64,000 nucleotides of DNA, from the NCBI GenBank assembly GCA_965205425.1, contig CBDBGZ010000009.1, positions 832,001-896,000 on the forward strand, written 5' to 3'. Below, piece after piece: positions 39,881-60,011 of the stretch; position 1 is the first letter of the stretch; each line of letters starts with the position of its first letter. The stretch is from Nitrosopumilus sp. (GTDB taxonomy: Archaea > Thermoproteota > Nitrososphaeria > Nitrososphaerales > Nitrosopumilaceae). The position numbers and the translations under genes were made by a program. The notes under the pieces are model-generated. The model was not told the DNA's origin, did no database searches, and saw only the letters and a list, made by a program, of their open reading frames with translations.

Positions 39881-42082
39881 TTGAGGCCAATGAGTATGAG
39901 TCAAAATGCTCTTTCTCTCAAAGTTCTTGAAGCATACACAAGAGATGTAGGAAGAGGGGTAGCTAGAATTGATTATGATTCTATGGATACACTAAATGCC
40001 TCTACAGGTGACGTTATTGAAATTAAAGGGAAAAGAAGAACAGTAGCTAAATGTCTTCCTCTCTATCCTTCAGATGAAGGAAAGGGGATAATCAGAATTG
40101 ACGGACTAGGACGGAATAATTCGGGAATTGCAATAGGGGATACAATTTCAGTTAGAAAAATAAAAGCAGTAGCTGCAGAAAAAGTTGTAGTTGCTCCATT
40201 AGAAGCAATTCCACCAATTGATGAGAGATATCTTGCAGACGCTTTAGAAAGCGTTCCTTTGATTAAAGGTGATAATGTAATGGTTCCATACTTTGGTGGA
40301 CGTTTAACTTTTCAAGTTATTGGAGTAAATCCAGCAGCTGATGCTGTTTTAGTTACTCAAAAAACTGTTTTCCACATTGCAGAAAAAGGAGAAACACTAC
40401 GTGGAGTTCCACAAGTAACCTATGAAGACATTGGTGGAATTTCAAATGAGATTAAAAAAGTTAGAGAAATGATTGAACTTCCATTAAGACATCCAGAAAT
40501 TTTTGAAAAATTAGGAATTGAAGCTCCAAAAGGCGTCTTATTGTATGGTCCACCAGGTACTGGTAAAACTCTACTTGCAAAAGCAGTTGCAAATGAAAGT
40601 AATGCACATTTCATTAGTATTTCTGGACCAGAAATTATGAGTAAATTCTACGGCGAAAGTGAAGCAAGACTAAGAGAAATTTTCAAAGAGGCAAGAGAAA
40701 AAGCTCCATCAATTATCTTTGTAGATGAAATAGATTCTATTGCACCAAAAAGAGAGGAAGTTACTGGAGAAGTTGAAAGAAGAGTTGTTTCTCAAATGTT
40801 ATCATTAATGGATGGATTGGAGGCAAGAGGTAAAGTAATTGTTATTTCTGCAACAAACAGACCAAATGCAATAGATCCAGCACTTAGACGACCAGGAAGA
40901 TTTGATAGAGAAATCGAGATTAAAGTTCCAGATAAAAAAGGAAGAAAAGACATTCTTGCAATTCACAGTAGAAACATGCCATTAGGCGAAGATGTTAATC
41001 TAGATAAAATTTCATCAGTTAGTCACGGATATGTCGGTGCAGATTTAGAATATCTTTGTAAAGAAGCAGCAATGAAATGTTTGAGAAGATTATTACCAGT
41101 TTTGAATTTAGAAGAAGAAAAACTTCCTCCAGAAACTTTGGATAAATTGATTGTAAACCATGAAGATTTCCAGAAAGCACTCATTGAAGTAACCCCATCA
41201 GGAATGCGAGAAGTTTTCATTGAAAACCCAGATGTAAAATGGGATGACGTTGGTGGATTAGAAGATGTTAAACGAGAATTACAAGAAGCAGTAGAATGGC
41301 CAATGAAATATCCTGGTCTATATGATAAACTAGGACACAATATGCCAAGAGGGATATTATTACATGGTCCAAGTGGTACTGGTAAAACTCTACTTGCAAA
41401 AGCAGTTGCAACTCAAAGTGAAGCAAACTTTGTTTCAGTTAGAGGCCCCGAATTATTGTCTAAATGGGTAGGAGAATCAGAGAGAGGAATTAGAGAAATT
41501 TTCAAACGTGCACGTCAATCTGCACCATGTGTTGTATTCTTTGATGAAATAGATTCTATTGCACCAATTAGAGGAGCTGGTGGAGAAACAGCAGTTACTG
41601 AAAGAGTTGTTAGTCAATTATTGACAGAATTAGACGGTATGGAAAACATGCACGGAGTCATAGTTTTAGCAGCAACCAACAGAGCAGATATGATTGATCC
41701 TGCATTATTAAGACCAGGAAGATTTGATAAAATTATTCAGATTCCACTTCCAGACAAGGAAAGTAGAAAGAGTATATTGAAAATTAATGCCGAGAAAATT
41801 CCAACTATTAGTGAGGAAAGTGATCCTAATCATGTTGATTTCGAGAAACTTTCAGAATTAACAGATGGATTAAGTGGCGCAGATACTGCATCTATTGCAA
41901 ATACTGCAGTATCTCTAGTAATTCATGAATTCTTAGATAAAAATCCAGATGTAAAAGATATTGAGAAAAAGGATGTGGATGCTAAAGTAACTATGAAACA
42001 CTTTGAGGAAGCAGTAAAGAAAGTTAGAGAACAAAAAGACCTCAAGATGGGTGAAAAATTAATAGCTTCCTATTACAGGTAG
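39881..42082 (+). CDS. cdc48: CDC48/VCP family AAA ATPase
   Basis: Two AAA domains ([16 protein letters not shown]), [11 protein letters not shown]. Confidence 0.96.
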
Positions 42083-42114
42083 TTTTAATTAAATAACAAA
42101 TCTAATCCTCATAA

Positions 42115-43404
42115 ATGTCAAAATATATAGGATATGATGGAAATTCTTTGGAATTTCTAAAAACAAATGATATTTCAGTTGGAGATTCTGTAAAAATTTT
42201 AGCTGGTATTACTTATTCAGGAATTATTATGCCAAGATATGAACATAGTGATAACAAACATATCGTTTTAAAATTAAAAAGTGGATACAATATTGGTTTA
42301 GAAATTTCTAAGATTGAAAATGTGGAGAAAAATCCATCTATAGAAAATATTATTGAGAAAAATGAAAATATAGAAAAAAATGAACAGTTACCAAATATTT
42401 TATTATTATCAACTGGAGGCACAATCGCTAGTAAAATTGATTATAGAACAGGTGCTGTTACACCAGTATTAACTGCTGAAGAATTAAATTCTTCTGTTCC
42501 CGAGCTTGCTAAAATTGCAAACATAGATGCAAAAGTTCTGTTTTCTGAATATTCAGAAAATATTATGCCTGAACATTGGTTAAAAATTGCTGAAGAAATT
42601 AATCAATATTCTAAATCAGACTATTCAGGAATTATTATTGCTCATGGTACAGATACCATGCATTACACATCATCGTATCTTTCTTTTTCATTGGCAGGAT
42701 TCCCAATCCCAATAGTGTTAGTCGGTTCACAAAGATCTTCAGATCGTGCATCATCAGATGCAGCACTAAATCTAATTGGAGCTACAAAATTTTTAACTGA
42801 ATGTAAAACAAATGGCATCTACATAGCAATGCACCAAGATGAAAATGATGAAACAATTGCATGTCATATAGGTACTAGAGTAAGAAAAAATCATACAAGT
42901 AAAAGAGGAGCATTTCAAACAGTTGGGGATGATCCTGCATTTTTAATTGTAAATAATGAAATTCACAATAATATGAAAACAGATTTTTTTACAGACAAAA
43001 AATTTGAACCTAAAATAAAAATAAATGAAAAAGTTGTATTGATAAAATATCATCCAGGATATGATCCATCTTTGTTAAAACATATCATAGACTCAAACTA
43101 TAAAGCAATAATTTTTGAAGGAACTGGGCTTGGACATATTGGAGAAAACATGTATTCAATGGTAAAAATGGCAAAGGAGAAAGGCATCTTTATGGGAATG
43201 ACTTCTCAATGTATAGACGGTAGAGTGAGAATGACAGTTTATGAAAGTGGTAGAGATTTACTTGATTTAGGCATAATTCCTCTAGAAAACATGATACCTG
43301 AGATTGCATTAGTGAAAGCAATGTGGATTACTGGGAATACTGAAAATCTTGATGAAATTAAAAAAAATATGTTAAATAGAATTGCATGTGAATTTTCAAA
43401 ATAA
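42115..43404 (+). CDS. gatD: Glu-tRNA(Gln) amidotransferase subunit D
   Basis: STGGTIAS, HGTDT, SQRSSDR; adjacent to gatE. Confidence 0.95.
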   Translation: MSKYIGYDGNSLEFLKTNDISVGDSVKILAGITYSGIIMPRYEHSDNKHIVLKLKSGYNIGLEISKIENVEKNPSIENIIEKNENIEKNEQLPNILLLSTGGTIASKIDYRTGAVTPVLTAEELNSSVPELAKIANIDAKVLFSEYSENIMPEHWLKIAEEINQYSKSDYSGIIIAHGTDTMHYTSSYLSFSLAGFPIPIVLVGSQRSSDRASSDAALNLIGATKFLTECKTNGIYIAMHQDENDETIACHIGTRVRKNHTSKRGAFQTVGDDPAFLIVNNEIHNNMKTDFFTDKKFEPKIKINEKVVLIKYHPGYDPSLLKHIIDSNYKAIIFEGTGLGHIGENMYSMVKMAKEKGIFMGMTSQCIDGRVRMTVYESGRDLLDLGIIPLENMIPEIALVKAMWITGNTENLDEIKKNMLNRIACEFSK

Positions 43405-43416
43405 ACAGGAATCAAT

Positions 43417-45327
43417 ATGGAAAAATTTTCAATTAAAGATGTAGGCGTCAAAGTAGGTTTAGAAATTCACCAACAACTTGCAACAAATAAAAAATTATTC
43501 TGCAATTGTATACCTATTGAATCAGATGAATATTCAATCAAATTTCAAAGGAAATTACGAGCATCTAAAAGTGAATTAGGGGAATTTGATCCTGCAGCAT
43601 TGTTTGAAAGTACAAAGTCTAAAACAATAATGTATTATGCAAATGATGAAAGCAGTTGCTTAGTAGAACAAGATGAAGAACCACCACATGAATTAGATGA
43701 AGATGCAAGAAAAATTGCCCTGGTAATTTCTTCTGCATTAAAATCAAATATTTTTAGTGAAATTTATCCTATGAGAAAAACAGTAATTGATGGTTCTAAT
43801 ACAACAGGATTTCAACGTACTATGTTAATTTCACAGGGGGGATTTTACAATGCTGGAGACATCAAGATCGGTATTCAATCAATTTGTCTAGAAGAAGATG
43901 CTGCCAAAATTTTAGGTGAAGAAGGTTCAACAAGAAAATTTGGTTTGGAACGTTTAGGAGTTCCATTAGTTGAAATTGCAACCGAACCTTTTGAAGTAGA
44001 ATTAACAGAAATTAAAAAAATTGCATTATCATTAGGAAGAATTTTGAGAAGTACAAAAAAAGTGAAAAGGGGTCTAGGATCAATTAGACAGGATGTTAAT
44101 GTTTCAATTAAGGATGGGGATGGCGTTGTAATCGAAGTGAAAGGAGTACAACAATTAGATCAATTAGAAAAAGTTGTTGAATATGAAGCCAAAAGACAAC
44201 ATGGTTTGTTAAAAATCTCAAAAAAAATCCAAGAAAATAATTGGACATATTCTAAAGATGATAAAAAAGATATTACAGAATTATTTTCAAAATGCAAATC
44301 AAAAATTATTCAAAATGCAATAAAGAAAAATCAAAAAATAATTTCAATATCTTTTAAAAACATGGCTGGAATATTCGGATTTTCACCATATGATGGTATC
44401 AGATTAGGAAAAGAAGTAGCAGAATTGGTAAGATTTTTTGGAATAGGGGGAGTATTTCATTCAGATGAATTGCCTAACTATGGAGTGGAAGAATCAGATT
44501 TGGAGGGATTAAAAGAATTTACTGAGATTAAAGAAAATGATGGATTTTTAATTTTAGCATCACCTACAGAAAAAATCCACACTATTGTAGATCAAATTAT
44601 TTTAAGAATTGAACATATTAGAGATCATGGTATCCCAATAGATACTAGATTAGCTACACCAGCAGGAGAAACAAAATTTCTTAGACCAAGACCAGGATCT
44701 GCAAGAATGTATCCTGAAACTGACATTCCTCCAATAATTATTACAAGAGAAGAATTATCTGAAGCTGAAAAAAATATTCCAAAATCATGGGATGATTCTA
44801 TAAAAGAATTGGAAACTAAATATGGAATTAATTCTCAACTTGCCGAACAGATTTTTGATTCACGGTACATTGGATTATTTGAAAAAATTATTGAAGAAAT
44901 TAAGATAAATCCAACATTTGTTACATCAATCCTTTGTTCTTCAATTACAAATTTGGAAAGAAGTGGACTAGACTCTAATTTATTAAAAAATGAAGAGATT
45001 TTCAAATCGTTTCAGTTTTTGGAAGAAGGAAAAATTGCAAAAGAATCTATTGAAATAGTATTTGAAAATATAATGGCTGGAAAATCAAAAATTATTGAAG
45101 AAGCTATGAAAAATGCCTCAATTCAATCTGTAAATGAAGATGATCTAGAAAAAATTATTGAAGAAATTGTAGAGAAAAATGTAGATATCATTAAAAATCA
45201 AAAAGAAAGAGCGATGGGACCATTAATGGGAATTGCTATGAAAGAATTAAGAGGTAAAGCTTCTGGTGAAACAATCAACAATCTTCTTTTAAAAAATATC
45301 AAAAAAAAAATAGAAAATCTAGAATAG
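43417..45327 (+). CDS. gatE: Glu-tRNA(Gln) amidotransferase subunit E
   Basis: GLEIHQQL, DGSNTTGFQRT, RPGSARMYPETD. Confidence 0.96.
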   Translation: MEKFSIKDVGVKVGLEIHQQLATNKKLFCNCIPIESDEYSIKFQRKLRASKSELGEFDPAALFESTKSKTIMYYANDESSCLVEQDEEPPHELDEDARKIALVISSALKSNIFSEIYPMRKTVIDGSNTTGFQRTMLISQGGFYNAGDIKIGIQSICLEEDAAKILGEEGSTRKFGLERLGVPLVEIATEPFEVELTEIKKIALSLGRILRSTKKVKRGLGSIRQDVNVSIKDGDGVVIEVKGVQQLDQLEKVVEYEAKRQHGLLKISKKIQENNWTYSKDDKKDITELFSKCKSKIIQNAIKKNQKIISISFKNMAGIFGFSPYDGIRLGKEVAELVRFFGIGGVFHSDELPNYGVEESDLEGLKEFTEIKENDGFLILASPTEKIHTIVDQIILRIEHIRDHGIPIDTRLATPAGETKFLRPRPGSARMYPETDIPPIIITREELSEAEKNIPKSWDDSIKELETKYGINSQLAEQIFDSRYIGLFEKIIEEIKINPTFVTSILCSSITNLERSGLDSNLLKNEEIFKSFQFLEEGKIAKESIEIVFENIMAGKSKIIEEAMKNASIQSVNEDDLEKIIEEIVEKNVDIIKNQKERAMGPLMGIAMKELRGKASGETINNLLLKNIKKKIENLE

Positions 45328-45331
45328 GTAA

Positions 45332-45350
45332 TGCGGGAAGTGGGATTTGA
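45332..45350 (-). other. 3'-end fragment of a tRNA (Leu-like); probable att site of an integrated element
   Basis: Minus strand TCAAATCCCACTTCCCGCA matches a T-loop, 3' T-stem, acceptor strand and discriminator A; the rest of the tRNA is absent. Confidence 0.65.
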
Positions 45351-45355
45351 GATTT

Positions 45356-46674
45356 CAGTAGATGGGAAAGTAACTCAAGTTACACATTCTAGAAAATAAT
45401 TATTTTTGTTATTTCTAAAGTAATGAATAATTATCTTTACAAAGAAATATTTGAGAATTTCAATTGATATTATTGGTTTGTGATTTTGTACATTAGTTTC
45501 TTCTGAGATAATCAAATTAGCAATTATCCATGCATTGTACAAAATCAAGGAATAGTAAAAATACAACAATCTTATGGATTGGTTTGAACTGGTGGTTTTT
45601 GGTCTGAACCTTCCCACACATGCATAACCTGTTTCAATCCCCCAACGTTTCTTGTAATCAGTTGGAATGTTTTGTATGTTATATGATATTTCTTTTGGTG
45701 AAACGTTTGTTGCAAACACAACATACTGATCAATAATATCTGATTTTTTTCTTGCATTTTTGTTTGGTAGAATAACTAGATTAAATGATTCTACATGTCC
45801 TGATGATGATTTTATTGTGTATGGCGAGATTGACTTTCTATCTCCATTAACGTATTGTACAATTGCATCTTTGATTCGAGAATTCTTTTTTGCAGGCATT
45901 AGAAATTTTAAATTCCTTTGTTTTATTTCTGAAATTGTTCCAGCTGTGAAAAACTCCCTATCCACTAGCAATAGTTTAATCTTGATTCCATTATTGATGC
46001 CATCAGAGAGTAATTTACGCACAAAATCGGCATTTGATATGTTGTCATACAAAGGATAACAACCTAATTGAGCCCTGATTCTTTTTTCAACGCACTGCAT
46101 GGTGCAGTAACTCTCAAAATGAGTAGTACTGTTTTTAGATTTTGATTTTATTAAAGAATGGTTTGGCAATTTGTCATATCTTGGGATTAGATGTTTGTCA
46201 ATTGCCACAGTAACTGGTTGCTCCAATACTCCCAATTCTTGTAATTTTGATATGGTACTATCCAGTGAACGATGTAATTGAATTTGCATTGTTTTTTGTG
46301 ATATTTTTGATATAATTTTTCTCAACCATGAAACCCGTTGGAGAATGATTCTGGGATTCCATTGCCAGTCTCTTTAATCCAGATTCAGAATATGAATTTC
46401 CCAAACACAATGACATGATAGAATTGTGTGCATCAGCATTGTGGAACCGTGAGTTATTTTTACTAGAGCATGGAAACAACAAGATATTGTACATTATTTT
46501 AGTGATAATCTCAAATGCTTTTGATAGTATCACGCCTTGGTGTGTCATGGTATCAAATGAAGTACAATGCATATTTGATGGAGTGACATACTTACATCAA
46601 GCTTTTTCTATCTGAATAATTTGAGAAAATGATCGTTATTTTTTGATCCGAATTGAGCACTTTCCTATCTACTG
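45356..46674 (-). mobile_element. ISH3-like (IS4 superfamily) element, copy 1; transposase split into 46258-46572 and 45375-46325
   Basis: IRs CAGTAGATGGGAAAGTAACTCAA / TTGAGCACTTTCCTATCTACTG; VAID, LLVDREF, YKKRWGIETGY motifs. Confidence 0.85.
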
Positions 46675-46807
46675 TTCCTGAGACATGGTTGATGTTTTTC
46701 CACTTACATCGTGGACAAATCCGTTTTCCTTGCCATCTTTTGTGTCGAAAATAGACCCTACTTTTCGTCACACTATTTGCCAGTTTGATCGGATCAACAT
46801 CAGGCAC
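46675..46807 (-). pseudogene. N-terminal remnant of an IS1595-like transposase truncated by ISH3
   Basis: RWQGKRICPRC zinc-ribbon start; the ORF runs into the ISH3 IR. Confidence 0.55.
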
Positions 46808-46875
46808 AACTTAGGCATGAACAATTTAGAAATATTTCTTGTTATCTGTTCCAACTAAGGGGGTATTACCTTATT

Positions 46876-47157
46876 TTATGATGTATTTTCATTTGTAATG
46901 TAATCTATTGCTTTCATGATATCATTATCTGATTCTATCAGAGCAATCATAGATTCATCATAAGATGCATTAGTTACATCCGTTACTGATTGTATATCTT
47001 TTTCACTCGGAGGCAACGATATGTATCCAGAGAATGGTTCCTCATAACCCCCACCTTTCCAACCACTTGGATTGTTTTGTTGAAAAGAGAGAGAAACACC
47101 AATAATAATAATTAGTGAAATTATAATAATGAATTTTTTAGAATTAAAAAAAGTCAT
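46876..47157 (-). CDS. Small membrane-anchored protein, partner of 47161-48051 (putative immunity)
   Basis: N-terminal TM segment; starts 3 bp after the upstream stop. Confidence 0.6.
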   Translation of the reverse strand: MTFFNSKKFIIIISLIIIIGVSLSFQQNNPSGWKGGGYEEPFSGYISLPPSEKDIQSVTDVTNASYDESMIALIESDNDIMKAIDYITNENTS

Positions 47158-47160
47158 TGT

Positions 47161-48051
47161 TTAATCTATAAACAATGTATGGTATATGACGTTTCCAGAA
47201 TTAGAGTATTGAGAATTACAAATTGACCAATAATGAGTTTTCGATGGTGAAAAATTGAATGTATTTTCATCATGGCAACTATCAACCCAATCAGAATGAC
47301 TTTGTATAGAAATCCAACTTCCTATATCTATACCTGATTGATATGAATCACTAATATTTTTCACTTTATGATATGGTATTACTTGACCATACCATGCTTC
47401 ATTACCTAAAGTGTATTGTGCGGACCATAATTCTCCATAATCCATATTTTTATTGTATGTTGTTGATGTACATAACAAGAGACCATTATGACACCAGAAT
47501 TTTTGATAGATCGTGGATTTAAATGGGTCTCCAGATACAAATGTAATCTTACTTGATCCATCATCATATGTTATTTGTCTTATGTTGTCATTTTTTTCTC
47601 TTTTGATTTCATTTCTTTCAGAAGAGTTTGCAGTTCTATCTAATTCTAAATCCCAGAAATACGGATCTAATTTATAGGCATCAGCTAATACAATGCCTAC
47701 TTCTAGTAACCTTTCTTGTTTTTCATCAAGTTGTTCCTTTAGTTGTTGTTTTTCATTGCCATCATCAGAGTTTCTAATTTGCTCTAATATTTCCAATACT
47801 TGATTTGCATATAGGTCTTGATATTTTGGTTGTACTAATTCAATTACTTCACTATTTATCATGGAATTAATAACTCTGATTTTAATATCATCAGATGTGT
47901 TATTATCACCAAAAATATTGTTGTATTGATGAATTAGTAGTTCATCATCTATTACTGATGCCTCTGCATAATTTATCATACTAAATGGCAGAATCATTGT
48001 AGCAATCAAGCCAGCAAAAAGTATTGTCTGTACTTTTTTATCATTTTTCAT
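47161..48051 (-). CDS. Secreted protein A: shared signal peptide, acidic pro-region, unique Cys/Trp-containing C-terminal domain
   Basis: MKNDKKVQTILFAGLIATMILPFSMINYAEA signal peptide. Confidence 0.7.
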   Translation of the reverse strand: MKNDKKVQTILFAGLIATMILPFSMINYAEASVIDDELLIHQYNNIFGDNNTSDDIKIRVINSMINSEVIELVQPKYQDLYANQVLEILEQIRNSDDGNEKQQLKEQLDEKQERLLEVGIVLADAYKLDPYFWDLELDRTANSSERNEIKREKNDNIRQITYDDGSSKITFVSGDPFKSTIYQKFWCHNGLLLCTSTTYNKNMDYGELWSAQYTLGNEAWYGQVIPYHKVKNISDSYQSGIDIGSWISIQSHSDWVDSCHDENTFNFSPSKTHYWSICNSQYSNSGNVIYHTLFID

Positions 48052-48447
48052 GTTATTGTTACATCGCAAAAATTATTCCAATATAAAGATAACATGAGAC
48101 TTGGCATAATTATTTACAAAAAACAAAACCAAAAAATAATTATTATCAAATTGATTTTGTTTTAATCAACATAATCTAATGTATATTCAATATGACTTTA
48201 CAATTCCATGATATTATTCCATCATAGAAAGTGGGATAAAGTAATATGGATTATATGTTAGGATTTTACCGTATTAAATAATAACATGAAAAATTTAACA
48301 AAAAAGACACAAACAATTTTGTTTGCAGGAATAATTACTGCAATGATTCTACCGTTTAGTATGATGGATTTTGCAGATGCTCAGAATGGACCAGGTGAGG
48401 ATTCTACAGATGAGGTAGGACCAGTTGGAGTTGTTGATGAACTAACA
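48026..48447 (+). repeat. Roughly 420-bp direct repeat, copy 1 (bidirectional intergenic region plus both gene starts); copy 2 at about 51930-52352
   Basis: Near-identical by visual alignment. Confidence 0.9.
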
Positions 48448-49209
48448 AAACAAGAGTTCAAAGAGGATATTCGAGAATTAATAGATGATGCAGATACAAA
48501 AGATTTTCAAGCAAAATCTAATGAAATCAAGGCAGAATATGACGAGTTCTTTAGTACTGTAATTGAACAAGCCCGTGTGGATTCAGAAACTAGAAACCTG
48601 ACTGATGTAGAGATTGCAGCTGTAAAAAATTATATCTTTGATGAAACAATAAAAGACGAGAAACTAAAAACATTACAAGAGTCAGATTATGCAGATAGGA
48701 TAGATGTTAGTTTTCTAGATTGGTTTGGTATTCAGACTGCAAGTGCCGCATGTTCAAGTACTACAAATCCAACATACAAACAACTACGTCTAGACATTGA
48801 TGGCGGCATACACAACGGCAATGCATACAATGGCGATAATGACTTGTATCTTGTATTATACCAAGACAGCCCTGGAACCTGTGAAAGAACATATATTTTG
48901 TCTTTTCTAGATGAGGATCATCCTTATTTGGATTCATTTTACGATAGTGTACGATTCTTCATGTTCAACAGAACATTTGATATCGAGTCATTTGTAATTA
49001 AGAACAACAACCAAATAATATTTGGCGATACGTGGAGTTCTTCAAATAGTTATGATTGTACTCGTGGTTCACTTGATCCTAGAGGATGTCATTTTACAAC
49101 AACTAAATCATACACACCTGGTCAAACAATCTATGTCAGTAACACTTGGAACCATATGATGGATACGTCTGACACAAACAGATCTCTATCCAAGGTCTCA
49201 GTACCTTAA
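48286..49209 (+). CDS. Secreted protein B (paralog of 51047-51955)
   Basis: Signal peptide ...FADA, acidic pro-region, ASA-ACSS, C-terminal domain with DEDHP, DIE and SNTWNHMMD. Confidence 0.75.
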   Translation: MKNLTKKTQTILFAGIITAMILPFSMMDFADAQNGPGEDSTDEVGPVGVVDELTKQEFKEDIRELIDDADTKDFQAKSNEIKAEYDEFFSTVIEQARVDSETRNLTDVEIAAVKNYIFDETIKDEKLKTLQESDYADRIDVSFLDWFGIQTASAACSSTTNPTYKQLRLDIDGGIHNGNAYNGDNDLYLVLYQDSPGTCERTYILSFLDEDHPYLDSFYDSVRFFMFNRTFDIESFVIKNNNQIIFGDTWSSSNSYDCTRGSLDPRGCHFTTTKSYTPGQTIYVSNTWNHMMDTSDTNRSLSKVSVP

Positions 49210-49220
49210 TCTTTTTTCTT

Positions 49221-49511
49221 TTGATTATGAGAAAGTTAACACTCTATGTGGGGTTACCTTCATATGGGTTATTGATTTTTTTTATTCCAGGCTTTGTGCC
49301 TGACTTTCATATTATATGGTATTTTAATCCGGTTGTGTTGATGATGAATGTTATTATTATCGGGTTAGATGATGCAAATAGAGGCCTACAAATTAGTAGT
49401 GATATAATGGTAAGTGTAATTGTGATCGGTAACATTTCTTTTTGGCTCACTATTGCATATTATATTAATAGATTTTTAGATAATCGCAGAAAAAGATTAG
49501 AATTAAAGTAG
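49221..49511 (+). CDS. Small 2-3 TM protein, partner of B (putative immunity)
   Basis: Hydrophobic; paralog of 50745-51041. Confidence 0.65.
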   Translation: MIMRKLTLYVGLPSYGLLIFFIPGFVPDFHIIWYFNPVVLMMNVIIIGLDDANRGLQISSDIMVSVIVIGNISFWLTIAYYINRFLDNRRKRLELK

Positions 49512-49521
49512 AATATATGTA

Positions 49522-50607
49522 TAGCGACGATCAAAAGTTCGCAAACATCTTTGCGGGATTTCTAAAGATATAATTTGCAACATCAAGCTTGAATTTTGTC
49601 ACTCTGAAATATTTTGACACTGCCTTGTTCATCATTGTAAACATTGCATAATACTCTGAAACCAACAATGCATACTTGCTTATCTTCCAGCACTGCTCTA
49701 TCATGTTCTTCAAGTATGGTGATCCCTTTGGCAACCAGATTAGTTTGACATCTCTATTGTTTGCAAGGTATTCCTTTACCTTCTTTGATTTGTGAACTGA
49801 TGCTCTATCTAAAATGATTGCAATCTTGCCGTATTTCCAGTGTAACTCCTTTAGGTACTCTACAAATGTTACAGCATTGAATTTGTCATAAACTCTAAAC
49901 AGTTGATTACCATTTTCTGTAATTGTACCATACACTGCCAGACTCTCATGTCGTCCTGTATATGGAAGAAATATTCTCTTTGCAACTGGTGACCAGTACT
50001 TTTTTCCTGTTTTTGTATCCCTTACAAAGAATGCTTCATCAGCCATTGCAATTACAAATCCTTTCTTTTTTAGGCGTGAAATTCTCTTTTTGGTGCGTTG
50101 CTGCCAGCTTCTCACAGCAGATATACTTGCATGGTTGATGTGATATTTTTGTGCAGTTTTTGCAGACATGCCGTATTGGTGCATTATCTTTCTGATGTGG
50201 GTTATGTGAAATTTTACTCCAGTGGAATAAAAGATACTTTGTTGCAACATTATGGGGGTAAACAAAGTTAGCATTGCTTTTGACATGATAGCATCCATTC
50301 GAGTCTGGGAGATTGTTCTTGGCCTGCCACTTCTTGGGTGGTCGTAGAGGCCATCTATCTCAAAACGACTCACCCATTTTCTCACCCAGCTTGTGCAGTG
50401 GTGTAATGTCTTTGCAGTGCACTGTATGTCCTTTCCATCCTTTAGAATCATCAACACTGCAAGCATCCTTACTGCAACCTTGGAGTTTTCTTTTTTGTAT
50501 GCTGCTTTCAAGTGATTCTAACTTGTTCATCAAATTTTACCATACATAGTGATCAAAAAGTTTTTTGTTTTGGAATAATTTAGTTCACGAACTTTATCTT
50601 TTCGCTA
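49522..50607 (-). mobile_element. IS630-family element (transposase 49531-50511)
   Basis: IRs TAGCGACGATCAAAAGTTCG / CGAACTTTATCTTTTCGCTA flanked by TA; DEA, ILDRASVH, LPKGSP..N.IE..W motifs. Confidence 0.88.
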
Positions 50608-50744
50608 TAACTCTGTTATTTCTAATTTATTTTTTAATATTTTTAATCTATTTGCAATACTTGTTCTTAGTTTTTTTGAAACGATTCTTGGGCATCACAA
50701 ACATCAAAAGTAGTTGAATTTATTTATCTGTGCAATAACCTATT

Positions 50745-51041
50745 CTACTTTAATTCTAATTTTTTTCTGCGATTATCTAAAAATCTATTAATATAATGTG
50801 CAATAGGGAGCCAAAAAATAAGATTAGATGCAAGGATTGTGATAAAGTTTGCAATCTCACCAGACAGATAACGTGGACCATCATCTATCGCCATAACGAC
50901 AAAAGTCATTAGATATACCACTGGATTAAAAATCACATTAGTATGATAATTCATTGGAAGTCCTACCAAATATGTACCATAGAAAGTTAAAAGACCATAA
51001 AATGGCAAACCAATGTAAAGTGCTAATTTCCTTATAGTCAA
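50745..51041 (-). CDS. Small 2-3 TM protein, partner of C (putative immunity)
   Basis: Shares RKLxLYxGLP start and YINRFLDNRRKxLELK end with 49221-49511. Confidence 0.65.
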   Translation of the reverse strand: MTIRKLALYIGLPFYGLLTFYGTYLVGLPMNYHTNVIFNPVVYLMTFVVMAIDDGPRYLSGEIANFITILASNLIFWLPIAHYINRFLDNRRKKLELK

Positions 51042-51046
51042 AAAGA

Positions 51047-51955
51047 TTAAGGTACTGAGACCTTAGATAGGGATCTGTTTGTGTCAGATATATCCATCAT
51101 ATGATTCCAAGTATTGCTGACATAGATTATTTGACCCGGTGTGTATGGCTTTGTTGTGGTTGCATGACAATAGATAGTTGTACATAGATAATCCCAAGAA
51201 TTACTCCATGTATTATCAAATTCTATCTGATTATTGTTCTTGATGGTAAATATTTCTATATCGTGTATTCTATCATACATGATTATTCTGACTCGGTCAT
51301 ATGCGGCATCCAAAGTTGGGTGATCTTCATCATAGAAATATAAAGAGTACGTTCTTTCACAATCTACAGAATTATCATTATATGAGACAAGATACAAATC
51401 ATTATCCCCATTGAAATGATATAACCAACCAATAGAGCCGCCATCAATGTCTAGACGTAGTTGTTTGTATGTTGGATTTGTAGTACTTGAACATGCGGCA
51501 CTTGCACTAGGAATTCCAAACCAATCTAGAAAACTAACATCTATCCTATCTGCATAATTTGACTCTTGTAATGCTTTTAGTTTTACATCTTTGATTGTTT
51601 CATCAAAGATGTATTTTTTTACATTTATAATTTCAGCATTAGTCAGGTTTCTAGTTTCTGAATCCACACGGGCTTGTTCAATTACAGTACTAAAGAACTC
51701 GTCATATTCTGCCTTGATTTCATTAGATTTTGCTTGAAAATCTTCTGTATCTATACCATCTAACAGTTCTCTGATATCATCTTTGAACTCTTGTTTTGTT
51801 AGTTCATCAACAACTCCAACTGGTCCTACCTCATCTGTAGAATCCTCACCTGGTCCATTCTGAGCATCTGCAAAATCCATCATACTAAACGGTAGAATCA
51901 TTGCAGTAATTATTCCTGCAAACAATACAGTCTGTACTTTTTTATCATTTTTCAT
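51047..51955 (-). CDS. Secreted protein C (paralog of B with a diverged central C-terminal domain)
   Basis: First ~170 aa nearly identical to B; C-terminal YVSNTWNHMMD.SDTNRSLSKVSVP conserved. Confidence 0.75.
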   Translation of the reverse strand: MKNDKKVQTVLFAGIITAMILPFSMMDFADAQNGPGEDSTDEVGPVGVVDELTKQEFKDDIRELLDGIDTEDFQAKSNEIKAEYDEFFSTVIEQARVDSETRNLTNAEIINVKKYIFDETIKDVKLKALQESNYADRIDVSFLDWFGIPSASAACSSTTNPTYKQLRLDIDGGSIGWLYHFNGDNDLYLVSYNDNSVDCERTYSLYFYDEDHPTLDAAYDRVRIIMYDRIHDIEIFTIKNNNQIEFDNTWSNSWDYLCTTIYCHATTTKPYTPGQIIYVSNTWNHMMDISDTNRSLSKVSVP

Positions 51956-52352
51956 GTTATTGTCACATCGCAAAAATTATTCCAATATAAAGATAACTTA
52001 GACATGGGCATAATCAATTACAAAAAACAAAACCAAAAAATAATTATTATCAAATTGATTTTGTTTTAATCAACATAATCTAATGTATATTCAATATGAC
52101 TTTACAATTCCATGATATTATTCCATCATAGAAAGTGGGATAAAGTAATATGGATTATATGTTAGGATTTTACCGTATTAAATAATAACATGAAAAATTT
52201 AACAAAAAAGACACAAACAATTTTGTTTGCAGGAATAATTACTGCAATGATTCCTGCCCTTTAGTACGATGAATGTCGTAGATGCTCAGAATGTCCTAGG
52301 AGAGGATTCTACAGATGAGGTAGGACCAGTTGGAGTTGTTGATGAATTAACA
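51930..52352 (+). repeat. Roughly 420-bp direct repeat, copy 2
   Basis: Matches 48026-48447. Confidence 0.9.
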
Positions 52353-53117
52353 GTACTAGATTCTGTATTAGATGACTATTTAGAGGAATTAGAAGTTGAA
52401 CAAGATGTAGAATATACAGAATATTTGGATACTGCAATTACTAGATTAGAAATTGCAAAAGCAATGATGCAGGTTTCAAAAAATTCTACTGATATTGCAA
52501 TGAAATATCAAAACCACACTGTTCTAGAACTGCTTGTCCTTCTTGATCAAACATATGGACCTGAGGATTATCCTGCAACTAACAGTGATAACAATTCAAC
52601 ACATACAAACATAGACATGCTAACTGAAAATAATCATGTATCTGGACTTTATTTTGTTAGTCATAGTACGCCAGAAGTTGATGTGTTGAATTACAACAAC
52701 CATCACCAAAAACAATATGATTGTATGGACAGAATAACCCTTACAGGTAAATCTTTATCTGTCTTAACATCATACTCAGACAACACTGCAACGATTACTG
52801 GTACATTTGATTATCCAGAAGATATGGATAAAAATATCAGAGAACGAAGAAGTAATGAATGCTTGAGTTTTGAACACGATGAAACAGTAAAACGACATGA
52901 TGTTATGATATCCCTTGATCCTAGAGAAATAATACGAGCTCAAGTGTGTACTTTGACGGAATCTAATCCTTTGGATTCTGACTTGGTAAGTTGCAATGCT
53001 TTTGGTGCAAATAGATTGACTGTAATTACGACAATTAACACGTATGATGGAGTTGATTCATCTAAAATAACCTCGCTTGGGAGTACAATGGTAACACTGT
53101 TGTTTACTGCGCCATAA
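52190..53117 (+). pseudogene. Secreted protein D with a 1-bp insertion in the signal peptide (~52253); downstream frame is ORF 52269-53117
   Basis: ATG 52190 MKNLTKKTQTILFAGIITAMI then ATT-C-CTG-CCC-TTT-AGT versus ATT-CTA-CCG-TTT-AGT in B; unique C-terminus. Confidence 0.7.
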
Positions 53118-53124
53118 TTTTTTC

Positions 53125-53397
53125 ATGTTTAAGAAAAAACTAGGTTATACCCTAGTATTACTATCGTTTTTATTTTTATTTGTTCCCTCCTTTGTGCTAT
53201 TTGATAAATTATATCGTATGATATTGATAATTGGGAATGACAAAACTAATGACTTACAAATATCGTCTCCGATTATAGATTTTGGTGGTTCTGCAGAAGG
53301 TGTTGCCCTTTACATTGTATCTATATCTATTGTAGGTTGTCTGTTCCTTTGTACTGGCATATACATCGTACTTTATACAAAAAATCCCCAAAACTAG
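53125..53397 (+). CDS. Small 2-TM protein, partner of D (putative immunity)
   Basis: Two hydrophobic segments; starts 7 bp after the stop of D. Confidence 0.6.
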   Translation: MFKKKLGYTLVLLSFLFLFVPSFVLFDKLYRMILIIGNDKTNDLQISSPIIDFGGSAEGVALYIVSISIVGCLFLCTGIYIVLYTKNPQN

Positions 53398-53511
53398 GGC
53401 AAAAAATCAAAAAGAACCTCAAAGAAAAAATATCTCACTGCAATAATTGACATCAATACCACCTGAGAGATTTAGTAGGACCGTAATTTATGCAATCAGG
53501 AAATTATTGAA

Positions 53512-54542
53512 TGTCTATTATCCTCAAATTAGTTCATCCCATTATTTCCAGACTAAAGTCAAGATACGTTTGGAAAAGAGGAAAGAATCACAAGATTATG
53601 CAAAAGTTAGATCCAATCCAGATATCCTGGATAATCAAGTCAAAAGAGGACGGTGCCAAGAACGCAGACGTTGCCTCATCCATGAAGATATCTGTTGGGT
53701 GGATGCAGAAACTCTACTCACGGTATCGCCGTACTGGTGCAGTTCCAATCCTAGGCAAGTCTGGAAGGCCAAAGGGAATAATCACAGAGCAGATGGTGCA
53801 GACTGTCCAGTCTACATTTGAAAAGTTCAGGTGTTCTGCAGTATTCTTGGAGAAAATAATTGATACTACTGGAACACACATACCTCACAATACCATACAT
53901 AAAATTATGAGAGATGAAGGGTTGGCAGAAGCTCAGCCAAAGAAGAGGAGAAGACGAAAGTGGGTTCGATATGAAAGGACATATTCAAACTCCATGTGGC
54001 ATACTGACTGGAAGAAGCTAGATGATGGCAGATGGTTCTTATGCTACCAGGATGACGCATCAAGGTTTATCGTTTCTCATGGAGTGTTTGCAGAGGCAAC
54101 AACAGATAACGCACTTGTGGTATTACATGAGGCAATTGCAAAGCACGGTAGGCCTGCATCAATTCTAACTGATCATGGCTCCCAGTTTTATGCAAACCAA
54201 TCAGAATACAAGAGAAAAGGAGCATCCCAGTTTGAGCAGGAACTGGTAAAATTAGAGATAAAGCATATCATGGCAAGAGTGAACCATCCTCAAACCAATG
54301 GCAAGCTCGAAAGATTTCACGGCGAGATTCAGAGAAAGCAGAAATGGTTTGGCACCATTGATGAGCTGGTCCACTGGTACAATCACATAAAGCCACACAT
54401 GTCACTTGACTGGGATAATCTTGAGACTCCTGCAAAGGCATATGCAAGAAAGATGCCAGAGAAAGGAACAAGAGTTATTGATGAGCAGACAGGAGAAGAA
54501 TACGATGTCAAATAAGGGACGAACTGATTTTGGGATACAACA
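53512..54542 (+). mobile_element. IS481-family insertion sequence, copy 2 (transposase ends at 54515)
   Basis: TGT...ACA ends; near-identical to 36408-37440. Confidence 0.88.
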
Positions 54543-54615
54543 GAAGGAAAAAAAGTGAGAAATCATACAATATATCAAATCCCTTAATTTATTATAAGAA
54601 TAGTTGTGTGTGATA

Positions 54616-55641
54616 GGGTGTGTCCTAAAACTATCCTCTAACATGTTTTGTAACCCCCATCAAATTAACAACTCGTATGTTGTAACAAATTACACGCAAC
54701 GCCAACTCTTTTCTTTGAACCAACTTGTTTTTTGATGACAAGCTATTTCCAAAGATTCTTTTGAGTACTGCAAATACTGATTCAACAAGTGACCTCTTGT
54801 GATAATGTCTGTCAAATTCATCTTGATTGTCCTGGAATAATGTTATCATTTTTTTCCATGATGCAGAGCCTTTGGGATTTCTAACTGTGTTCTTCTTTGG
54901 TTTGATGTATGGTATCTTTTGCAGAGTAGCTACCATATTGCAAATGTCTCGTGACAAATATGCAGGATCTGCACAAAAATCACCAATTCCCTTTGGAATG
55001 TCTTTGATTAGTTTTTTGAGAATTGGTGCATCACCACGAGTTCCTTTAGTAATGTCAAAAGATACTATTGCCATGGACTGTATTGCAATTAGGATGTGCA
55101 GTTTTAGATATAATTTCTTGGATTTGTGCGTGTTTGTCTTGATGTCAAACCAAGCCTCACATCTTTTGGTACCAAATCCTGAACTGTCAGGAGCTATGTC
55201 TTTTTTTTGATTGGTTCTGTGAGTTTTGCGTTTACCTTTTTCAAATAAGGCATTGGAATTCTTTTTAGACTGTCATTAATGACAGTCTTGCTTGGTGCTT
55301 TTTTGAGCTCCATTATTTCCAACAGATCCGGCCTTGATCTCAAGTGGGACTCCATGGAACGATAATCCAATCCAAACTTTACCTTTAGCATTGCACACAT
55401 TATCTTTGCTTTTGTTGGAAATGCAGGACGTCCGCCTGTCTTTGGTTCCCATGGTGTATCCATACTCCAAACTGTCTTCTTTACTTTTTCCAAGAATAGA
55501 ATCTCCTCATCCTTGCGATATGTGCCATATACTTGCCAGTCTCTTTTTGATTTGTTTTGCATAGTTGTTGTGATTCCATGCGATCAATATGTTACAGAAT
55601 TGAATAAAATTGTTATATTTGTCTACTTTTAGGACACACCC
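54616..55641 (-). mobile_element. IS5-like element; transposase orfA 55194-55562 joined to orfB (ends 54631) by a -1 frameshift
   Basis: Perfect 15-bp IR GGGTGTGTCCTAAAA; DSSGF, ADPAY, YHKRSLVESVF motifs; A8G slippery site at 55200-55208. Confidence 0.82.
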
Positions 55642-55774
55642 GATCTTTTGGAATATTATGGGGGTGTTGCAGGTATGCCGCAATTGCCAATAGTTGAGAA
55701 TCATCTGACTTTTTACCTTCTCCAAAGGGCAGCAATGGTATGATTTTTGACTGTATTTTACAGATACTGGAAAG

Positions 55775-55990
55775 TCATAGAGTGGATTTCTGTTTGACTA
55801 GGAGTAATCGTGCCCTGTCCTGCGTGTTTCGGGGGCCGGTTCTCAGAATAATGCCACAGCACGGACAGTTTACCCCATCCCATACCAGAAATACCGCACA
55901 AACAGAGCATCTCTTCTGTCCAGATGAGTATCTGCTTTTCATGAATGATTTTTTTGCCTTGTATTTTACACAGATTTCCCTACACCCCAT
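55775..55990 (-). CDS. Small zinc-finger protein
   Basis: C...C, RCSVC, CPCCG..LRTGPR. Confidence 0.65.
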   Translation of the reverse strand: MGCREICVKYKAKKSFMKSRYSSGQKRCSVCAVFLVWDGVNCPCCGIILRTGPRNTQDRARLLLVKQKSTL

Positions 55991-56095
55991 GAATTAGTTT
56001 TGAAATGATTCTCGTATATGTATGAATAGATGGATTGGTTTTGGTCTCTTTTCCGGAAATTATTTTAAAGTTATTTTTTAGACGATAAGAAACAG

Positions 56096-56972
56096 TCAAA
56101 TCCAAAGAAATTCCTCAGGATCGCCTTGAATTGCCTGAGACCTCAAAGTTATCTCATCCCAGCTGTCACAATCAACATCCAATCTATTGCATGCAGACAA
56201 TATTTGCTCCATGTACGGTGCAGCATATCTCATCCTTACAACTAGTTCAAACAAGTCTTGTATTTTTTTATCAAAAATATCATTTTCAACAATACAGTCA
56301 TGCTGCAATTGGCATATTTTCTCCAAATCAGTGATGTTTGTTTTGTTTTTGTTTCTGATTATTGATAGGTTTTTTTCTTGCTCAAACAGATTATCCAAAT
56401 CAATTGAATTTATTTTTCCAAACTTTCCATATATTGAGGATTTGATATTATAAACGGCATAATACACACTAGTTGACAGCCTATACTCGTATTTTGTTTG
56501 TGCAGGGCAGGGTATTGCAGTCTCACCAACAAAACCAGAAAAGAACAGTCCCGATTCACGCAATACGTCGAAAGTTGTATCGCCAGTATGAATATGGTTC
56601 ATCACCTTGTTTTCAGTGTCAAACATTTTTCTCAGATGAGTATTGCGAAACAGTGCGGGATCAGTTGGGCCTTTGAGGTTTTTCAAAAATTCTGCAACTG
56701 GAAATGACTCAAACTCGGATGTCGGTTTTACAATACATGCCAAAGAATAACCCTGATTGAACAAAGACCTAACCAGTAAATGATAATGGTTTTTTGTGTT
56801 TTTATCTTTACTGTAAAGTCTATCAATGATATCATTAGTGGTTCTAATCCATTTGAATTTTACAAATTTCAAATTATTTTTCTGTATTTGCTTGATTCCC
56901 TCTTTGTAAATTCCAGTTACTATAGGCATCAGGGGAGAACAATACAAACCCAACACTGTCAAAATCAGTCAA
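56096..56972 (-). pseudogene. Nucleoside-diphosphate kinase-like protein with C-terminal extension; frameshift near 56925
   Basis: LKGPTDP...LRKMF...NHIHTGD...RESGLFF resembles the NDK active site; the NDK-type N-terminus FVLFSPDA is in another frame from TTG 56972. Confidence 0.6.
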
Positions 56973-56977
56973 AACGA

Positions 56978-57679
56978 CTATTGTGGATAAATTATGGTAC
57001 CTTTGCCTGTTTTGCTCTCTACAAAATCCCTTATGGATTTGACATCATATCCATTGAGAACTGTACAGGTTTGGTTTTTCTCCATCAAGAATGGAGGCAG
57101 ACAAGCATCAACACATGTTGCAGATGTACCATTCAAAACACTTGCATTAGCTGTGCTTTGTGGTTTACCAGACATGTCATTTGAATCCTCATAAATCCCA
57201 TCCACATCTGTCAGTATTGCAAATTTCTTTGCAGACAAAATGTTTGCAAAATAGGCAGACATTGTATCAGATGTTATCCTCCAGCTTTGCTCAAAGACAT
57301 TTAGTTGGATTATCATGTTTGATGGAAGCATGACTGCAAGTTTGTCATTATCAAATATTTTTTTCATATCCACAAATGTTGAAAAGAACCCCACATCACC
57401 ACACATGGAGCCAAATATCAGTCCTGTCTGGTCTTGTGCCCTTGCACATAGATTATGATGGATTTCTGGCTGAAACGAAACTGTCTTGTTTAACTTTTCA
57501 ATGTAATTGTCAATTGGGCCACCACCAGGAAACACAACAATGTTGTGATGTGTCCCAAGATCCGACAATTCAGATGCCAGTAACTTGCACTTTTCCAGAT
57601 TATTCAACAGACTTCCACCAAGTTTGATTAAAACATCAACGTCTAAATCCTGAAAGCCTGGCAATTTTTCTTTGCTCAT
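56978..57679 (-). CDS. Amino-acid-kinase-family small-molecule kinase (MfnE/uridylate kinase-like)
   Basis: IKLGGSL, PGGGP, ITSDTMS, LTDVDGIY. Confidence 0.8.
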   Translation of the reverse strand: MSKEKLPGFQDLDVDVLIKLGGSLLNNLEKCKLLASELSDLGTHHNIVVFPGGGPIDNYIEKLNKTVSFQPEIHHNLCARAQDQTGLIFGSMCGDVGFFSTFVDMKKIFDNDKLAVMLPSNMIIQLNVFEQSWRITSDTMSAYFANILSAKKFAILTDVDGIYEDSNDMSGKPQSTANASVLNGTSATCVDACLPPFLMEKNQTCTVLNGYDVKSIRDFVESKTGKGTIIYPQ

Positions 57680-58911
57680 GTCACTCTTTTTAAAACCATA
57701 TCTAATATGTCAAACGCTTCTAAAAATGATTTCTGAGAAGTGATTAAAGGAGGTTTGAAAATCAAAACGTTTGTTTGTCCTGATGCAATTCTCAACAATA
57801 ATCCGCCATCAAAACATTGTTTACGAATTTGTTCGGTTCTGGTATTCTTTTGATTCTCTAAAATGACAATTCCCCACAAATGTCCTATGCCCCTAAAATC
57901 TAAAATCATAGAATGTTCATTTTTCAGACATTTTAGAAAATGTCTAATCTTTTTTTCGTTTTTCTTTACTTGTTTGAGTAAATTTGTTTTGGAGAGAATA
58001 TCCAAATTAGTTGATGCTACAACACATGATATTGGATTTGCGCCATCAGTGATTTCATGTTCACCGTAATCCAGATTATCCATGTCTCTTGTGGAGAATG
58101 TCATAGATAACGGGTATCCTGTAGCAAATGCCTTTCCACCAGTCAGAATATCAGGGGTCACGCCAAAATAATTTGTAGCAAAATACTCCCCCAACCAGCC
58201 AAAACCGGTCTGAACCTCATCGAAGATCAATGGAATATCATAATCTTTTGTAATTTTTCTAATTGTCGACAGAAATTCTTTGTCGTGAATTATAACTCCT
58301 GCCTCTACCATGATTGGTTCAAGTATTACAGTTGCAATTGTTTTATGTTTTGATTCAATTAGACTGGAAAATTCATTGATGGATTGACGTACACAAGTAA
58401 CAGTATGTTTTCCATTAGAATATACATCACAATTGCAAGGTTTGAGGAAATCCACATTGTTACGATTCAAATATTTCTTATCAAAATTTTTCCCACTGAT
58501 CCTCATGGTCTCCATTGATTGTCCATGATGACTGCCAAGAAAAGAGACAGCACCAATACAGTTTCGTTTTTTGTAGGCCATTTTTAGTGCCCCTTCATTT
58601 GCAAGTGTTCCACTAGTGATCTTTATGTTAACTTTGGTTAATTCTGATGGCGCCATCTGCATTAGCTGTTTTATCAGTTTGTGGGAGTATGGATTTCCAA
58701 ATCTTGAGGAAATGTAAGTTATGGAATTGATTACATCTGATATTGATTTGGTTATTTTTGGATGACACTGACCCAAACTAAGATTCAAAGTCTGTGATGT
58801 AAAGTCAAGGTACCTTTTTTGATTACCATCATAAATAATCTCACCTTTTCCCCTGATCACATCAAAGTAAATTGGTTTTGTATTTTTTGAATAGTTTTTC
58901 ATAAATTTCAT
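57676..58911 (-). CDS. Class III PLP-dependent aminotransferase
   Basis: LEPIMVEAG, FDEVQTGFG, PDILTGGK, RGIGHLWG. Confidence 0.88.
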   Translation of the reverse strand: MKFMKNYSKNTKPIYFDVIRGKGEIIYDGNQKRYLDFTSQTLNLSLGQCHPKITKSISDVINSITYISSRFGNPYSHKLIKQLMQMAPSELTKVNIKITSGTLANEGALKMAYKKRNCIGAVSFLGSHHGQSMETMRISGKNFDKKYLNRNNVDFLKPCNCDVYSNGKHTVTCVRQSINEFSSLIESKHKTIATVILEPIMVEAGVIIHDKEFLSTIRKITKDYDIPLIFDEVQTGFGWLGEYFATNYFGVTPDILTGGKAFATGYPLSMTFSTRDMDNLDYGEHEITDGANPISCVVASTNLDILSKTNLLKQVKKNEKKIRHFLKCLKNEHSMILDFRGIGHLWGIVILENQKNTRTEQIRKQCFDGGLLLRIASGQTNVLIFKPPLITSQKSFLEAFDILDMVLKRVT

Positions 58912-59041
58912 CGCAGTGATGGATTTTAAGGGATTTTTAACATCTGCAACAATTCATGAACTCCCGCAAAGATCACTGTCATTTCCTGCAAGGCATGCCA
59001 ATCCAAACAACAGCAACTTTCAGTGTCATAAAACTGCAAGC

Positions 59042-59509: not shown

Positions 59510-59534
59510 TTAATCTAGGAAATATGCCACAATA

Positions 59535-59987: not shown

Positions 59988-60011
59988 TTTAGATATGATT
60001 AATAATTACTT

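Follow-up and report, generated by a model that had tools for sequence, protein, structure and literature searches.

An array of predicted exported proteins and type-specific small membrane partners in Nitrosopumilus: candidate effector-immunity cassettes

What might be gained by an archaeon that places, directly behind each of several genes for exported proteins, a small membrane protein gene of its own kind? The question is raised by positions 46876-53397 of a 64,000-nucleotide stretch of Nitrosopumilus sp. DNA (assembly GCA_965205425.1, contig CBDBGZ010000009.1, positions 832,001 to 896,000 of the forward strand; the whole stretch is hereafter called the window), where four large genes (A, B, C, and D) are each accompanied by a small partner (a, b, c, and d). 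Little is known of the cell-cell interactions of ammonia-oxidizing archaea, and a full-text literature search found no toxin-immunity or recognition system of these organisms, the main review (Makarova et al. 2019) being outside its coverage. The array is described here as a putative new archaeal module, comprising an exported pro-protein and a cognate membrane partner, which has the formal architecture of polymorphic effector-immunity loci. Tentatively, and with rather less than an even chance of being right, we read the four pairs as cassettes of a lineage-specific, recombining family united by a Sec signal, the large proteins being secreted effectors and the partners protecting the producer, that is, immunity-type antagonism.

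The four large/small gene pairs of the initial annotation were confirmed by the list of open reading frames (ORFs) and by a whole-genome scan; in the ORF list, the gap between large gene and partner is 3 nt for A-a, 11 nt for B-b, 5 nt for C-c, and 7 nt for D-d. Signal peptides and transmembrane (TM) segments were assigned from hydropathy and, for the former, from the sequence itself. Gene A (47161-48051, minus strand; TTG at 48069 is an alternative start) encodes a predicted exported pro-protein of 296 aa with a Cys-rich C-terminal domain of a type of its own; it has no family in Pfam, NCBIfam, or PADLOC, one outside homologue (66%), and one paralogue on contig C4. Its 93-aa partner a (46876-47157, minus strand) was delimited from the ORF and hydropathy and has one N-terminal TM segment followed by an acidic domain with the motif G-W-K-G-G-G. 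Gene B (48286-49209, plus strand) encodes a predicted exported pro-protein of 307 aa in which the signal peptide is followed by the motif AQ..PGEDSTDEVGPVG, a helical region (residues ~50-146), and an Lsa23-like C-domain (156-307) containing a Cys-Cys loop (257-268). The 96-aa partner b (49221-49511, plus strand) is polytopic, with 2-3 TM segments, and combines conserved ends (LY.GLP.YG at the start; N..FW.P.A in the last TM segment plus a basic tail) with a variable middle. Gene C (51047-51955, minus strand; 302 aa) is a paralogue of B, and c (50745-51041, minus strand; 98 aa) is its membrane partner. The body of D (52269-53117, plus strand) is an ORF of 282 aa that has a PGED..GPVG motif and a helical region and whose Cys-containing C-domain represents a third type; d (53125-53397, plus strand) is a 90-aa protein with two TM segments.

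A, B, and C have a common hydrophobic N-terminus, ..QT(I/V)LFAG.I..MILPFSM..(F/Y)A(D/E)A, which ends in an A-x-A-like site. The initial annotation had ascribed this signal peptide to all four large genes; it holds for A, B, and C, whereas D is frameshifted and its body has no signal peptide. At the DNA level, positions 47948-48447 span the 234 bp between A and B together with the signal-peptide portions of both genes; they align with positions 51856-52352, the corresponding segment of C and D, at ~96-100% identity over ~470 bp, and a third copy is found on contig C8. The shared signal peptide is, on this alignment, part of a shared bidirectional DNA module of ~470 bp. Because the module is repeated between A and B and again between C and D, the array resolves into two divergent two-gene units, a-A/B-b and c-C/D-d, both predicted to be driven from their own copy of it. 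The ~470-bp unit looks like a portable promoter plus export-signal cassette, and it appears to carry export signals between unrelated genes.

If the partners are functionally tied to the large proteins, is the pairing kept elsewhere? A small TM ORF is located directly downstream of the B-type gene in 19 of the 24 loci fetched from species-representative genomes, and these 19 include other genera, Archaeoglobales, an uncultured archaeon, and Methanoperedens; in the last three the partners, of 114-128 aa and with 3-4 TM segments, form a different family. The B-type loci without a small TM ORF are L054, where the gene is broken, L062, L063, L067, and L070. All four intact D-type genes read in other genomes are followed by d-like genes of 74-91 aa with two TM segments, a motif resembling G-W-x-G-G-G is also present in the A-type partners at C4:94630 and L086, and an identical copy of c adjoins the C-type gene of G177, a genome of another species. 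Judged from these loci, each C-terminal type (A, B, or D) keeps a putative partner family of its own (a, b, or d, respectively) from genus to genus, so that the initial expectation of new C-termini arriving with new partners was borne out. This recurrence, like the near-identity of the repeated 5′ modules, exceeds what chance would give. Two variants of the arrangement were seen as well. On a contig of IBTHAUMO2 (L057:3242-3940) the B-type partner has 232 aa and consists of two b-like units fused in tandem, and at G071:C2:951389-954283 two D-type genes with their partners stand in tandem.

The four pairs belong to a larger family. Twenty-two ORFs of the 2.2-Mb genome carry the common signal peptide and/or the motif following it, AQ..PGE(D/E)..D..GPVG, and their C-termini are of at least five kinds: the B type has five full-length paralogues, the A type two, and the D type two (an insertion sequence, IS, truncates one of them), in addition to which there are five S1-like proteases and several singletons. 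A TM- or signal-bearing ORF lies ≤65 nt downstream in 16 of the 22, the partner measuring 74-103 aa in 11 cases and 182-231 aa in five, and all five of the longer partners stand behind S1-like proteases; of the remaining six, one is ambiguous and five lack a downstream ORF of this sort, two of them being interrupted by IS elements. Fragments of family members were found beside IS elements. The distribution is patchy: the signal module has matches in 7 of 121 family genomes against 19 matches in this genome alone, and the B type occurs in 9/201 family genomes, the D type in 6/301 genomes, and the A type in 7/301. The N-terminal regions give weak SurA_N-like matches (E 0.007-0.13), which we tentatively read as a TM segment resembling helices.

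The S1-like proteases possess TAGH, D-F-A (D(F)A), and GDSGGP motifs and show sub-threshold matches to Trypsin_2 (E 0.0024) and to the Rv1815 serine proteinase (E 0.0011); a PDB sequence search with them gave no match. They lie elsewhere in the genome, outside the window, on contigs C4, C8, and C9 (for example C4:177060-179143, C8:63475-65197, and C8:193198-195248), and their partners, which lie directly downstream or overlap by 1-4 nt, have an N-terminal signal or TM segment and match no family. We regard them as candidate protease/inhibitor or protease/keeper pairs.

How the pairs came to differ can be followed by comparing B with C. The two proteins are 79% identical, being near-identical to about residue 175, diverged in the core, and conserved again over the last ~35 residues. 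In 60-nt windows the first ~500 nt are 82-100% identical (mostly 97-100%), the core 35-75%, and the last ~100 nt ~88%. The partners b and c share 47% of their residues, with conserved ends; at the nucleotide level identity is down to 23-54% in their 5′ and middle portions but reaches 95% over the last 70 nt. Synonymous divergence (dS) between B and C rises from 0.18 in the 5′ module to 2.4 in the core. It follows that the near-identical N-termini are due to recombination or gene conversion; the cores themselves are, by the same measure, old paralogues. The initial annotation was right about the near-identical N-termini and the diverged cores of B and C, about the conserved ends and diverged middles of b and c, and about the C-termini of A and D, which are unrelated to B/C and to each other, as are their partners. 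It did not anticipate that the C-termini of B and C are members of the same conserved domain family, and the proposition that B and C carry different toxin domains was ruled out on that ground.

The diverged part of the partners remains under constraint. Over residues 1-75 of b and c the ratio of nonsynonymous to synonymous divergence (dN/dS) is 0.36, and this combination of divergence with constraint argues for partners that are specialized rather than generic. When B is compared with its paralogue on C8, the core is 99% identical, the loop (residues 250-272) 61%, and the partner 30%, which places a breakpoint near residue 250 and shows that loop, tail, and partner were replaced jointly. Such a pattern brings to mind self or kin recognition, in which a variable disulfide loop and the partner's own variable loop would form allele-specific pairs with no killing, as in Proteus IdsD/IdsE. 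The presence of a variable segment between conserved parts in both proteins, the occurrence of several alleles per genome, and the sharing of pair types as units by two species would all agree with it. Against this, over 14 pairs the Spearman correlation of partner identity with identity of the loop is 0.40, compared with 0.62 for the N-terminus, 0.64 for the tail, and 0.27 for the core; the correlation with the loop being weak, no co-evolution is claimed. Recognition would also leave the quite different domains of the A, D, and protease types unexplained, no cell-contact machinery is found nearby, and we consider it improbable.

Could the array simply be in decay? The initial annotation treated D as a single gene of 309 codons (52190-53117), but a TAG at 52262-52264 interrupts it. 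The signal-peptide ORF (52190-52264, plus strand), which ends CTT TAG, is cut short because of one extra C in ATT-C-CTG relative to B, and the long ORF, beginning at 52269, has no signal peptide. The identical frameshift is present in four copies of two genomes, namely the window, the copy on contig C8, and both copies of G177, and a contig from an independent run spans the site with no gap. The C8 copy of D is additionally truncated by the same IS4-type element that is found at the left edge of the island in which the array lies. In other genera, relatives of D are undamaged and begin with signal peptides. The gene d is intact in both genomes where the signal peptide of D is broken; by analogy, a broken D beside an intact d would be what decaying toxin loci often show, the immunity gene outlasting the toxin. 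At the frameshift site (52248-52265, likewise on C8 and at the two G177 loci) the sequence reads ATT CCT GCC CTT TAG T, of which the CUU UAG U portion resembles an RF2-type +1 shifty stop; a +1 slip here would restore an intact signal peptide (..AMIPALSTMNVVDAQ..). The 282-codon body of D is still open despite a frameshift kept in four copies and two species.

The frameshift, the IS truncation of D on C8, the family fragments beside IS elements, and the transposases that flank and interrupt the array would fit genes carried along as decaying or neutral cargo in an IS-rich island, multiplied through transposition and gene conversion but without any present function. However, the reading frames of A, B, and C and of the four partners are undamaged, dN/dS stays well under 1, archaea and bacteria that are only distantly related have many invariant residues in common, and the pairing is retained in other orders; mere cargo is therefore the least credible of the explanations considered here, and a very improbable one.

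A more serious challenge to immunity-type antagonism comes from the nature of the B/C C-terminal domain. A word search gave 54 homologues of B, of which the few named in the sources are Nitrosopumilus metagenome-assembled genomes, and none has a Pfam family. An exhaustive search produced 110 representatives and revealed the last ~150 residues in other architectures too, among them Theionarchaea surface proteins of 610 and 1934 aa and an Acidobacteria protein. Invariant or nearly so, in B numbering, are D170, N185, D209-E210-D211, P213, D216, Y219-D220, R223, D232, E234, H269, Y283, N286, W288-N289-H290, and N298; the hypervariable loop, bounded by two Cys, directly precedes H269. At E ≤ 1e-3 the NCBIfam model of the Leptospira surface adhesion protein Lsa23 (NF047489) is matched by 30 of the 31 members of the domain alignment, the best at 5.4e-44. 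Its bit scores are 33.8 for the B C-domain, 29.8 for whole B, and 28.2 for C, which do not reach the equivalog cut-off of 270. On these profile matches the B/C domain is a homologue of Lsa23 and not an equivalog.

Modeled alone with AlphaFold, the C-domain of ~150 residues is predicted to be β-rich, with a mean confidence score (pLDDT) of 88.9. Foldseek found nothing at E ≤ 0.001 for the full or domain model in the PDB or in BFVD; the ESM Atlas returned, besides unnamed clusters at 0.85, Vps62 at a chance-range value of 0.78; and sequence profile searches of the PDB gave only low-complexity or chance matches (an FtsH tail, NHL repeats, an endoglucanase). In a VIA-align comparison with 48,161 chains, NLP cytolysins occupied ranks 1-2 (3st1, Z 4.3; 9wsc, Z 4.2) over ~100 residues with a root-mean-square deviation of 3.5. 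In a second look NLPPya chains held ranks 1-5 (Z 4.5-3.8; ~100 of 152 residues aligned; deviation 3.4-4.2), and the next class followed at Z 3.1. The leading NLP matches (Z 4.2-4.5) cover 97-101 of the 152 residues with a deviation of 3.4-3.5. The invariant series D..DxE..H..Y..NH would be in the same order as the critical NLP residues, as these are given in excerpts of PMC7031652, if our matching of residues between the families is right.

Several findings weigh against a reading of B and C as toxins, and they are brought together here. Lsa23 is the only significant named match of either protein (E 3.5e-7 for B, 1.1e-6 for C), and excerpts of PMC8657130 describe Lsa23 as binding host proteins (fibrinogen, complement factors). 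No known toxin family is matched in Pfam, NCBIfam, PADLOC, or PDB sequences. The resemblance to the NLP fold is weak, its Z of <5 being under the value typical of chance-level best matches in VIA-align; NPP1 (PF05630) was matched neither by B or C at E ≤ 1, nor by the 64 alignment members at E ≤ 10, nor in a six-frame search of the genome; and the heptapeptide GHRHDWE (as given in the excerpts of PMC7031652) does not occur in B or C, which have R-T-F-D-I-E and R-I-H-D-I-E, respectively, at the candidate position. The domain sits near the N-terminus of the giant surface proteins. In P0158 (Pseudothermotoga, 378 aa) it is present with all the invariant residues and is fused to a YhhN membrane domain of the lysoplasmalogenase type, which hints that an Lsa23-like domain may act on or near membrane lipids, and many of the bacterial forms, of ~200 aa, have lipoprotein-like signals with L(L/T)(A/S)C-type ends. 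The YhhN fusion, the giant surface proteins, and the lipoprotein-like forms together suggest that the domain is held at the producer's own membrane.

To these must be added the behavior of the genes. A survey of bacterial Lsa23-like genes on metagenome contigs scanned 52 loci, 18 of which had no gene by the motif filter; of the 34 that were read (seven with <450 nt of downstream sequence), five had any TM-bearing ORF ≤120 nt downstream and none a polytopic ORF of <150 aa. Orphan partners are lacking: none was found when b, c, and d were compared by phmmer with all ORFs of the genome, and a profile search of 201 genomes for orphan b-type genes gave strong matches solely beside B-type genes, with weak ones in G052 and G019. 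The B/C core, with a dN/dS of 0.13 (range 0.07-0.4), is on this estimate under purifying selection; co-variation of loop and partner is, on the identities compared, weak; and D as encoded cannot, to judge from its reading frames, be exported. Lastly, Nitrosopumilus sp. Nsub and IBTHAUMO2, both carriers of the B type, are sponge symbionts according to excerpts of PMC7848895, which would fit host adhesion.

These results support the initial polymorphic toxin-immunity proposal in part. The architecture, the type-specific partners, the mosaic structure, the patchy distribution, and the IS-rich island agree with it; the lack of a toxin match and the Lsa23 homology do not. The Lsa23 homology of the B/C domain goes part of the way toward an observation that had been named in advance as telling against the proposal, a match to a benign adhesin fold.

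Almost as likely as immunity-type antagonism is docking, whereby the large proteins would be surface-binding or hydrolytic exoproteins working at the producer's own membrane and the small protein a specific anchor or co-subunit, replacing the bacterial lipid anchor or the fused membrane domain. The domain would then be tethered in three ways, by bacterial lipoprotein-like signals, by YhhN fusion, and by an adjacent archaeal membrane gene. The homology to Lsa23, the strict co-occurrence of partner and large gene with no orphans, the purifying selection on the domain, and the presence of the family in named sponge-symbiont relatives all point the same way. Three observations count against docking. 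The conserved parts of the paralogues are 90-100% identical, yet their partners are 19-48% identical and constrained, and a generic anchor need not differ; anchoring alone does not readily account for five B-type paralogues, each with a distinct partner, in a single genome; and the pro-region looks zymogen-like. A slim chance is left to some other explanation.

The sequence comparisons show 5′ modules made uniform by recombination, and core, loop, and partner exchanged as blocks. Immunity-type antagonism itself might proceed as follows. After export the helical pro-region would be removed, whereupon the C-domain could bind a glycan or lipid head group at the membrane surface and damage cells with no matching partner; on the producer's own membrane the variable outward loop of the polytopic partner would block it. 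The S1-like proteases and their secreted partners of ~190 aa may represent a protease/inhibitor version of the same logic. In its most ambitious form the proposal is of a Sec-dependent arsenal, dispersed and reshuffled on a common bidirectional cassette of promoter and signal peptide, in which some weapons would be NLP-like domains that attack membranes, each paired with a polytopic immunity protein, and others S1 proteases paired with secreted inhibitors; this we put forward as doubtful. Were it true, it would constitute the first archaeocin-type antagonism system in Nitrososphaeria, and a widespread Lsa23-like domain would gain a membrane-damaging activity.

The setting is one of mobile DNA. 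The island has four IS-type transposase genes, with gatD/gatE to its left: an IS4-type gene at the left edge (45375-46325, minus strand; Pfam DDE_Tnp_1), an IS630-type gene (49531-50511, minus strand; DDE_3 plus HTH, Pfam E 2e-20) between the convergent b and c, and, in a right-hand IS cluster (53511-55562), an rve-type gene (53511-54515, plus strand) and a split DDE_Tnp_1/DUF772 gene of IS5 type (54631-55562, minus strand). The initial annotation placed the array on an integrated element, but there are no tRNA genes in 40000-60000 and no tyrosine-recombinase integrase, only IS transposases, and an IS-rich island is the better description. In G183, the closest congener examined, gatE is present and the right-hand genes of the window are not found within 6.5 kb downstream or 1 kb upstream of it. 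The IS630-type element (49428-50647) is highly multi-copy, since the depth of its contig is ~100-500x that of its flanks in four public runs. A 288-aa ORF (56096-56962, minus strand) with weak similarity to a nucleoside-diphosphate-kinase domain (Pfam E 1.1e-9) had no counterpart in the 14 other genomes of the genus searched and probably belongs to the accessory island. Two 71-aa ORFs (46592-46807 and 55775-55990, both minus strand) with CxxC..CxxC-like motifs adjoin IS elements and have no Pfam family.

Whether weapon, anchor, or identity tag, the module bears on surface biology and competition in globally important nitrifiers. It is testable and conserved from Nitrosopumilaceae to Archaeoglobales and Methanoperedens, and through it the uncharacterized Lsa23-like domain gains an archaeal context and a partner.

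Which known systems does the array resemble? Lsa23 and B/C have in common an extracytoplasmic location, the DEDHP / DIE / H / Y..WNH residues of the bacterial forms, and homologous C-terminal ~110-150 residues. By contrast, the signal peptides of B and C end FADA|Q and, having no Cys, are not lipoprotein signals; B and C add a helical pro-like region of ~110 residues and a Cys-bounded variable loop; and a small membrane gene is always present behind B and C, whereas mostly there is none behind the bacterial relatives. Three structure searches with the predicted C-domain model placed the NLP/NPP1 cytolysins (NLPPya 3gnz and 5nnw; MpNEP2 3st1; PcNLP485 9wsc) nearest to it. Among archaea, a haloarchaeal plasmid-vesicle protein has previously been suggested to have an NLP-like fold (excerpts of PMC10818511). 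Like the B/C domain, the cytolysins are secreted and have an acidic, His-containing pocket and, on our presumed matching, conserved residue types in the same order; unlike it, they have GHRHDWE and are longer by ~60 residues, there is no sequence or profile match between the two, and Z is just 4.2-4.5.

In Proteus IdsD/IdsE and in halocin C8/HalI an exported protein is matched to a small membrane or immunity protein via variable regions; Ids relies on a type VI system, and HalI is cleaved from the same precursor as halocin C8; a sequence relation of the array to either would not be expected. Polymorphic toxin and bacteriocin-immunity loci, reportedly described by Zhang et al. in 2012 (a work cited in excerpts of PMC6393860), include Sec-exported types and pore-forming colicins with polytopic immunity proteins. 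From these the array differs in several respects. None of its domains is a recognized toxin, it is accompanied by neither orphan cassettes nor orphan partners, and it lacks pre-toxin and delivery domains; B and C represent paralogous versions of a single domain and not swaps of unrelated toxins; and the constant part is here mainly a signal peptide on a repeated promoter module. Nevertheless, the array and the polymorphic toxins alike combine a constant export module with different C-termini and a domain-specific small downstream partner, and both display recombination mosaics, a patchy distribution, and several loci per genome.

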